DNA of 31,026 nucleotides, taken from positions 1 through 31,026 of IMG/VR virus record IMGVR_UViG_2579778802_000007; one strand, 5' to 3'. Source of the stretch: a virus. Lineage: Duplodnaviria; Heunggongvirae; Uroviricota; Caudoviricetes. The notes beneath the pieces are model-generated. The model had not been told where the DNA came from and made no database searches. It was given only the letters and a program-made list of their open reading frames with translations. Positions 885 to 1,332 of the stretch are shown here, in pieces. Each line of letters starts with the position of its first letter. The first letter of the stretch is position 1. The translations under genes were made by a program, and so were the position numbers.

Positions 885-902
885 TGACCAGTTTTGCAGA
901 GG
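873..902 (+). terminator. Hairpin CTGGTCAT-TTG-ATGACCAG spanning the int stop codon, followed by TTTT; possible tI-like terminator or processing site
   Basis: Perfect 8-bp inverted repeat with 3-nt loop at 873-891 followed by a T-run, read directly from the sequence. Confidence 0.3.
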
Positions 903-925
903 GGTTTTGCAGAGGTTTTGCAGAG
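891..925. repeat. Three tandem direct copies of GTTTTGCAGAG (891-901, 904-914, 915-925); candidate arm-type Int binding sites
   Basis: Exact repeats seen in sequence, placed between the int stop and the ompW-like fragment, where lambda has its P' arm sites. A fourth copy (GTTTTGCAGA) lies at 1168-1177. Confidence 0.5.
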
Positions 926-929
926 AAAA

Positions 930-1055
930 TTAAAAACGATATCCTGCGGAGAACATAAACACCCACGGATCCAGTCGTACCGAGTCTTTTACGGTAGTAA
1001 CACCAGATTTGTACTTAGCCGTGGTATCGATATCCATGTACCACACTGACATGTT
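930..1055 (-). other. ompW': Phage-borne 3'-terminal fragment of ompW (41 codons + stop, ...SVRLDPWVFMFSAGYRF*); probable attP substitute 3' end / integration target marker
   Basis: Minus-strand translation NMSVWYMDIDTTAKYKSGVTTVKDSVRLDPWVFMFSAGYRF matches the C-terminus of E. coli OmpW as I recall it. Similarity stops abruptly at 1055, where the next in-frame codon upstream is TAA. Confidence 0.65.
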
Positions 1056-1240
1056 TTAAAAAATGCAATAAGACATTGTATCTGAAAGAAAAAACAGGAT
1101 TTTGAGGCGCTTTTTTATACCGTTTTTCCGTGTTTTTAACTGCCTGATTTTATTGAAATCTTTTTTAGTTTTGCAGAAAGGATTTTTTGCTCGATCGCTT
1201 TAATTTTATACATTCCTGATAACGGAAATTTTTTTGCCCG

Positions 1241-1270
1241 TTGACAGTTTTTGTTCTCCGGGGCTATATT
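1241..1270 (+). promoter_or_regulatory. Sigma70-like promoter candidate (TTGACA - 18 bp - TATATT)
   Basis: Consensus -35 TTGACA at 1241-1246 and -10 TATATT at 1265-1270; sits upstream of the Rha-like gene with a ~240-nt leader. Confidence 0.35.
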
Positions 1271-1332
1271 CCTCACACAACCGCAAAATCGGTTGTCGGG
1301 ATTGGCGTCTCGGATAACATCACAACGCATAG

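Follow-up and report, generated by a model that had tools for sequence, protein, structure and literature searches.

Positions 869-1180 of the window (the whole 31,026-nt stretch of DNA that was analysed) are, with a probability that we put at roughly 90%, either the attP of a temperate lambda-like phage of the published 'PPompW' or yciD-integrating kind or a prophage-prophage junction equivalent to it. In the mechanism that we propose, the phage carries a copy of the ompW 3' end, and Int would recombine the core at its inner end with the identical sequence of the chromosomal ompW gene. After integration the host ompW 5' part would read into the 41-codon phage end and on into a phage hairpin terminator, and ompW would stay intact; the original ompW 3' end would remain, orphaned, beside yciE at the other junction. 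In the recombination complex the arm domain of Int would probably occupy the three GTTTTGCAGAG sites that adjoin int as well as a single site at 1168-1178, with a probable contribution from an IHF-induced bend at 1137-1149. The elements on which this reading is built are the following:

1-884, plus strand: 3' part of int, codons 84-376 of a 376-aa lambda-family tyrosine integrase (by translation match)
869-895: perfect 12-bp hairpin, AAAACTGGTCAT / ATGACCAGTTTT with a 3-nt loop, spanning the int stop codon (inverted repeat I5)
891-901, 904-914 and 915-925, plus strand: exact triple tandem repeat of GTTTTGCAGAG, candidate arm-type Int sites of the int-proximal arm
930-1055, minus strand: phage-borne substitute ompW 3' end, 41 codons plus a stop codon at 930-932, reading NMSVWYMDIDTTAKYKSGVTTVKDSVRLDPWVFMFSAGYRF
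972-1020, minus strand: divergent middle of the substitute end, in which ANYKLGGAQQHDSV becomes AKYKSGVTTVKDSV
1021-1048: block identical to host ompW in all phage types (reaching 1055 in this window's type), from alignments A1 and A2
1042-1048: predicted 7-bp overlap CACACTG, in a proposed register
1056-1180: AT-rich int-distal attP arm, conserved in otherwise unrelated phages to ~1178
1137-1149, minus strand: candidate IHF site AATCAGGCAGTTA, a perfect match to the consensus WATCARNNNNTTR
1168-1178, plus strand: fourth repeat copy GTTTTGCAGAA, with 1 mismatch to GTTTTGCAGAG, in the same orientation as the triple and at the outer edge of attP

Lysogen junctions lie inside ompW

The window was aligned with the empty ompW locus of K-12, the left junction of 2017C-4173W12, the right junction of PPompW_132418 and the EC15 locus (alignments A1 and A2). 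The left junction of 2017C-4173W12, a single lysogen, has the order trpBA-yciGFE, orphan ompW 3' end, ash/Rha, and the right junction of the GenBank prophage PPompW_132418 runs from int through the substitute end into the ompW 5' part. This four-way pattern is that of attP x attB giving attL + attR: positions 972-1020 are phage-type wherever int lies on the left and host-type wherever yciE lies on the left, and to the right of the identity block comes either the phage arm or the ompW 5' part. In the single lysogen L003, the sequence from 928 rightwards has yciE and the original ompW 3' end as its left partner, and in L002 and L038 the sequence leftwards of 1048/1055 has the ompW 5' part and yciC as its right partner. 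Junctions inside ompW are thus seen in all three, joining the phage to yciE and the ompW 3' end on one side and to the ompW 5' part and yciC on the other, and they establish ompW as the target that the initial annotation had proposed.

In EC15, yciC is followed by an intact 212-codon chimeric ompW ORF (L038 9338-9976, annotated ompW) and then by int, and PGAP calls the gene under the junction ompW in 11/12 genomes sampled down the ranking. On the other side, L003 carries a 126-bp pseudogene ('OmpW family, missing N-terminus') between yciE and the prophage, and the same is found in L005 and L007. The phage copy therefore does replace the ompW 3' end, as had been suggested: the EC15 chimera is an intact gene of full length and the displaced end is a pseudogene. 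The attB core itself lies inside the ompW coding sequence, at codons 172-183 in the K-12 alignment.

In three IMG/VR left junctions (L014, L017 and L027) the orphan ompW tail ends in ...FSAGYRVM and is followed by foreign sequence, ...AATAAGTTGGAGTCATTACC, in place of the yciE-side hairpin. This points to a further insertion, precisely at the stop codon of ompW.

A substitute 3' end with a divergent middle

Next to int the opposite strand was initially described as encoding the last 41 codons of an OmpW-like protein. The encoded peptide is identical to residues 172-212 of K-12 OmpW at 34/41 positions (E=1e-23), so the similarity is significant. At the nucleotide level the identity to K-12 ompW is unevenly spread, with 43/44 matches at 928-971, 24/49 at 972-1020 and 35/35 at 1021-1055; outside 928-1055 it is at chance level (7/28 and 8/30). 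The block of nucleotide identity with E. coli ompW that had been expected is thus found at 1021-1055. The similarity stops at 1055, as first read, and an in-frame TAA at 1056-1058 stands directly upstream of the 41-codon OmpW tail; the coordinates given at that stage were correct within one base.

The substitute end alters seven residues, every one of them inside ANYKLGGAQQHDSV, and its loop reads AKYKSGVTTVKD. From the known 8-strand barrel topology, we take the 972-1020 stretch to be the last OmpW surface loop (L4). At least five versions of this stretch exist among related phages, and the flanking strand-coding DNA is nearly host-identical. The variety of loops across phages may only reflect capture from different hosts. 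That the substitute end is non-neutral, with the OmpW loop swap serving as a lysogenic conversion that alters a colicin/phage receptor in about one third of E. coli strains, strikes us as rather unlikely.

As RNA of the ompW-sense strand, the hairpin at 869-895 has a folding energy of -17 kcal/mol (z = -5.9), with UUUUUU after it; a consensus terminator scan did not call this hairpin. It is probably a two-way terminator serving both int and the chimeric ompW. Downstream of the chimeric gene, the phage hairpin and U-run stand in for the host hairpin GACCCCGTA...TACGGGGTC.

The integrase is of the lambda type

The 293 codons of int in the window are identical to residues 84-376 of the EC15 Int, WP_000113700.1. 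The full-length EC15 protein matches Pfam PF09003 Arm-DNA-bind_1 (E=1.2e-21, residues 2-71, a domain encoded upstream of the window) and Phage_integrase (1e-16), and Int matches the lambda Int structures (5j0n/1z1b) over residues 14-375 (E=1e-55). Its TGQR, QKTG, FHEQRS, LGH and IY motifs align with the catalytic positions that we take to be R212, K235, H308/R311, H333 and Y342 of lambda Int, and all six catalytic residues are conserved. Over its full length Int is 50% identical to e14 IntE. In relatives, the gene upstream of int (beyond the window) matches Pfam Exc PF07825, the lambda excisionase family. By these sequence matches, Int belongs to the two-domain tyrosine recombinases of the lambda type: it has the arm-binding domain and keeps the full set of six catalytic residues.

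Repeats at fixed positions in both arms, and a candidate IHF site

The initial annotation had reported three tandem repeats downstream of int with a fourth about 250 bp away, and the exact copies at 891-925 and the additional copy at 1168-1178 agree with it. When up to one mismatch is allowed, GTTTTGCAGAG occurs five times in the whole 31-kb window, and four of these occurrences fall inside 290 bp; 0.64 matches are expected in a shuffled window, and 0/100 shuffles reach five. For comparison across phages, 29 further att loci were drawn from IMG/VR by the invariant 17-mer GTATCGATATCCATGTA and their flanks were then classified. The triple repeat is found at 891/904/915 in 22 of the 24 distinct loci that have the int-proximal arm. 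One locus (L024) has two copies instead of three, and in another (L020) the repeats are displaced by 15 bp by an OmpW loop that is 5 codons longer. Within the fourth repeat, GTTTTGCAG is invariant in alignment A2, and it is present at 1167/1168 in every distinct locus reaching that far (24/24, the divergent L012 included). Three plus one copies of GTTTTGCAGAG/A thus occupy fixed places in both arms, except in L020 (shifted) and L024 (two copies). A search of the int-proximal arm for a P2-like inverted arm copy, at up to three mismatches, found none.

The fixed positions in both arms of relatives, together with the lambda-type arm-binding domain of Int, uphold the earlier designation of these repeats as arm-type, and Int is predicted to bind the GTTTTGCAGAG repeats. 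A literature search for the motif returned unrelated primer sequences only, and the papers searched do not name it as an arm site; the sources searched yielded no binding or cleavage data for this Int.

Perfect matches to WATCARNNNNTTR are rare, with only four in the 31-kb window on both strands. Of the 25 distinct loci with this arm, 24, L012 among them, have the IHF consensus at 1136/1137 (+/-1), the exception being JNEC-KY180 (L008). In alignment A2 the specified positions of the site are invariant but for one (Y is A in JNEC-KY180), and the N positions vary. This pattern points to IHF binding at the 1137-1149 consensus. Between the triple repeat and the core, no IHF consensus was found at up to one mismatch, though this arm is long, at ~120-154 bp from the crossover.

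Just after 1048 the int-distal arm occurs in at least five sequence types, to which the far more divergent L012 adds a sixth form:

Type a, ACATGTT after 1048: this window
Type b, GTAGGTT after 1048: several IMG/VR loci and phage 204576
Type c, GTAGATTTTAC after 1048: O145 PPompW
Type d, GTAGATTAT after 1048: P-EibA and ABU 83972
Type e, ATAGATT after 1048: L037

The conservation between types c/d and the others ends right after the fourth repeat. As a phylogenetic footprint, these boundaries would give an attP of ~290 bp (roughly 869/891 to 1178) that comprises three arm sites, the IHF site and the far-edge site.

A secondary insertion narrows the exchange point

The crossover had been expected near 1040-1060. 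Because the identity between attP and attB spans 1021-1048 in types b-e, the exchange falls within that interval. A tighter placement comes from an IMG/VR locus in which the phage arm is joined to a fimbrial usher gene, and which corresponds to sfaF/focD of E. coli ABU 83972. In this strain a ~53 kb prophage with this int (NC_017631.1 1,166,380-1,219,442; L042, L043) is cleanly inserted inside focD, an insertion that is on record as 'prophage 2' (PMC2928814). Native focD, as found in CFT073, reads ...GATATGACT-GACCG-TCATGCC..., the left junction in ABU 83972 reads ...GATATGACT-GACCG-GTAGATTAT..., and the right junction reads ...CATGTACCA-GACCG-TCATGCC... Only GACCG is shared by all three sequences; in this phage, which has the G1044/C1047 allele, it is the counterpart of window positions 1044-1048. 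We therefore place the strand exchange at 1044-1048. Since the ABU 83972 prophage has an ompW-type int, repeats and substitute end, it occupies a secondary site that shares 5 bp. In the same strain, an orphan ompW tail is left fused to focD.

The best candidate for the 7-bp overlap is 1042-1048 because the identity ends at 1048; over these seven bases the phage has CAGACCG and focD has CTGACCG (6/7). In types c and d the sequence is ATGTAC-CACACTG-GTAGAT, with hexamers that form a 5/6 inverted repeat flanking exactly 1042-1048. In this window's type and in attB the flanks of 1042-1048 are asymmetric, and the register one base to the left (1041-1047, CATGTA / GACATG) is more symmetric. In E. 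albertii NBRC 107761 (L047 3494-3720) the phage sequence switches to rlmC directly after ...CACACTG, which is consistent with 1042-1048. Positions 1044 and 1047 are polymorphic in phage and host contexts alike, irrespective of the flanks (EC15 and IMG/VR loci). This is consistent with what heteroduplex exchange of the overlap would give, and it also means that some pairs are heterologous within it. The focD lysogen thus narrows the expected interval to 1044-1048, with 1042-1048 as the likely overlap.

The E. albertii locus has int, the repeats and the substitute end next to rlmC, in an in-frame ORF fusing RlmC to the OmpW tail. Its rlmC junction is either a secondary site or a rearrangement.

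Alternative readings of the locus

An overlap at ~1029-1036, which we had first favoured, was ruled out by the focD junctions. A crossover this far to the left would use a 6-8 bp spacer between GTGGTA (1021-1026) and TACCAC (1039-1044), which form a perfect inverted repeat; 1024-1040 is invariant across all aligned att sites, and the right-junction alleles at 1044/1047 track the host flank. However, the right junction in ABU 83972 is phage-type through 1043, whereas native focD differs from it at 7/11 of the positions 1033-1043, and the left junction is focD-type as far as that position; in E. albertii the junction with rlmC is phage-type even through 1048. Provided that Int made the focD insertion, its junctions contradict a leftward crossover, which we regard as highly improbable, and we keep to an exchange at 1042-1048. 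As for the repeats, they could be sites of another factor (Xis, Fis or an int/ompW regulator) or slippage-prone filler after the terminator. Binding of Int to them is a prediction, their copy number varies (two in L024), and an exact 22-mer double repeat also follows non-integrase genes in three unrelated MAGs. Against this, motif and spacing are kept in both arms while the neighbouring sequence diverges, even in L012, and all copies have one orientation, with three beside int and one at the far edge, like P'1-3 and P1 of lambda. Int moreover has an arm-binding domain, and in e14, the element with the 50% identical Int, the corresponding place is taken by three tandem repeats of another motif. 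Taken together, these points leave little room for a role other than that of arm-type sites, which we continue to favour.

A further question is whether the sequence ever existed on one phage genome. In the window att is contiguous, and cos and Rz/Rz1 are also contiguous with the terminase genes, so that the window represents either a circularly permuted phage genome or two tandem prophages. If the latter, the locus would be a junction of two different prophages at ompW, with the int-proximal arm from the left prophage and the int-distal arm from the right one, and it could still act as attP. This bears on the physical origin only; it is compatible with the main explanation and leaves the functional reading unchanged. 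The closest complete-genome match, EC15 (99.3% over 600-1500), is such a junction, in which each prophage has an identical int. Over its left part (600-1055) the sequence matches O145:H28 PPompW at 100%, over its right part it is ~96% identical to other prophages, and PPompW itself carries another int-distal arm. The combined contiguity of att and of cos/Rz is also what tandem prophages have, but the record of a circularly permuted phage genome would look identical. Moreover, the right-hand prophage of EC15 pairs this int-distal arm with an identical int and int-proximal arm, so its excised form would carry essentially this sequence, and in 'Escherichia phage 204576' (CP025907) int, att and the distal arm are contiguous. 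We give an origin as a tandem junction slightly less than an even chance. The term 'attP-like', as originally chosen, is apt since the window may be either a tandem-prophage junction or a free-phage attP.

The 22-mer, GTTTTGCAGAGGTTTTGCAGAG, occurs exactly in MAGs of Brachymonas, Roseiarcus and Acidobacteriota (L044, L045, L046), 2 codons past a non-integrase stop in two of them and 17 codons past it in the third; the Brachymonas MAG has a third, degenerate repeat copy as well. When species-representative genomes were scanned for the double repeat, E. albertii and these three unrelated MAGs were the only hits, the latter without an adjoining integrase. By our own estimate ~0.07 random hits to GTTTTGCAGAGGTTTTGCAGAG would be expected in 596 Gb, and the three MAG occurrences may reflect chance among tandem duplications or contamination.

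EC15 (NZ_CM169486.1; L001, L038, L039) has two different lambdoid prophages in tandem at ompW, with identical int, xis and exo. A third junction, on the yciE side, was sought in this genome; the far end of the left prophage abuts zinT/msrQP instead, which implies a large rearrangement between prophages.

Comparison with e14, phage 21 and lambda

The e14 element and phage 21 insert into the 3' end of icd and supply an alternative 3' end. The likeness that was noted at the outset is apt, given the 50% identity of Int to IntE. It lies in the insertion into the 3' end of a protein gene and in the replacement end, the target being ompW here and icd there; in the K-12 MG1655 annotation, e14 starts 165 bp inside icd. 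In both systems three tandem repeats stand just 3' of the substitute gene end, with the motif GTTTTGCAGAG here and a TTATCAAAA-like motif in e14. The e14 copies (L040 ~1945-1985) read GTTATCAAAA, TTTATCAAAAA and GTTATCAAAAC and come right after the substitute icd end and terminator; by analogy, they are candidate arm sites of IntE. In e14, unlike here, int is ~3.3 kb from att, with the lit and ymfDE cargo in between. The methyltransferase encoded in the window (2809-3477) was compared with e14 YmfD and is unrelated to it.

With lambda the system shares a two-domain Int that has an arm domain and conserved catalytic residues, and an Xis of the lambda family. It also has three candidate arm sites by int and one outer site in the same orientation, with an IHF consensus between the outer site and the core, in an attP of ~290 bp. 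In lambda attP, P'1-3 and P1 parallel this 3 + 1 arrangement. Several features differ. Here attB is intragenic and attP includes a coding segment, and attP and attB share 28-35 bp, in contrast to 15 bp in lambda. The distance between the triple-repeat arm and the crossover is 120-154 bp, whereas it is roughly 50-85 bp in lambda, and the int-proximal arm here has neither a second inverted arm site nor an IHF consensus.

A published and widespread attachment site

The feature is an ordinary attachment site of the published PPompW / yciD type and as such is already known. Window positions 600-1055, which include the last 285 bp of int, are matched at 100% identity by 11 'Enterobacteria phage PPompW_...' records in GenBank; the 121-bp 'duplication due to insertion' annotated in these records, LC567822 for example, is window 928-1048. 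Nakamura et al. 2021 (PMC8112680) described a lambda-like prophage in ompW with a 121-bp attL/R, which they confirmed on attP sequenced from excised circles. In their search, a PPompW was a prophage at ompW with an int >90% identical to that of the O145:H28 strain 112648 (PMC8112680). The window falls within this definition by its full identity to the 11 PPompW records, in a comparison that covered 600-1055. For Stx2a phages in yciD (= ompW), a complete 639-bp yciD by the integrase and a 119-bp remnant on the other side have been reported (PMC8456039). In the texts of the PPompW and yciD papers that were searched, att is given as the duplicated block, and no arm sites, IHF site or exchange point are described.

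Compared with PPompW (LC567818-LC567841), the window has the same int 3' end, triple repeat, substitute end, core, target and 121-bp att. It differs in its int-distal arm, which is host-identical for 7 bases more (ACATGTT, 1049-1055) and which leads to isrK, C4, Ash and Rha, whereas that of PPompW leads to nleG-type cargo.

At >=80% coverage, the module made up of the int end, the repeats and the substitute end (window 640-1020) is present in 1,729/5,426 complete E. coli genomes, and 1,320 records carry it at >=99% identity. With the module in about one third of complete genomes, ompW (yciD) is among the busiest prophage docking sites of E. coli, and the prophages at this site include Shiga-toxin phages and effector-carrying EHEC prophages. 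Because the site and its 121-bp att have already been published, the analysis brings no new biology. It does make a modest addition in the form of a base-level attP model (~290 bp, 3 + 1 arm sites, one IHF site, exchange at 1042-1048), which would be useful for prophage boundary calling and integration vectors. It also adds that the prophage disrupting focD in the therapeutic bacteriuria strain ABU 83972 (F1C fimbriae) is an ompW-type phage.

Other elements in the window

A strong sigma-70-like promoter, TTGACA-18-TATATT, is situated at 1241-1270, just beyond attP. It is followed by an isrK-family sRNA at 1277-1351 (72 bits), with a terminator hairpin at 1331-1346, and by a C4 antisense RNA at 1376-1463 (76 bits). 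An Ash-family ORF (1251-1517) overlaps the isrK and C4 RNAs, and a Rha-family gene (1499-2071) comes next. The 1241-1517 region is a 75% match to Gifsy-1, in which isrK controls an antirepressor/antiterminator operon.

At 2483-4116 a class I SAM methyltransferase gene (2809-3477, plus strand) is flanked by two tail-fibre-assembly-like ORFs on the minus strand, which have near-duplicate C-termini, and the EC15 counterpart of this region contains tail-fibre fragments and an invertase remnant. The region resembles an invertible tail-fibre segment that has decayed and carries a cargo gene.

Two further Rfam matches are above the gathering threshold. A sar RNA, of the P22 antisense RNA family, is found at 14611-14678 on the plus strand (96 bits), at the end of a 322-aa ORF that is encoded on the minus strand amid the tail genes. 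The second match, to 'IS009' at 3575-3773 on the minus strand (225 bits), overlaps a tail-fibre-assembly gene.
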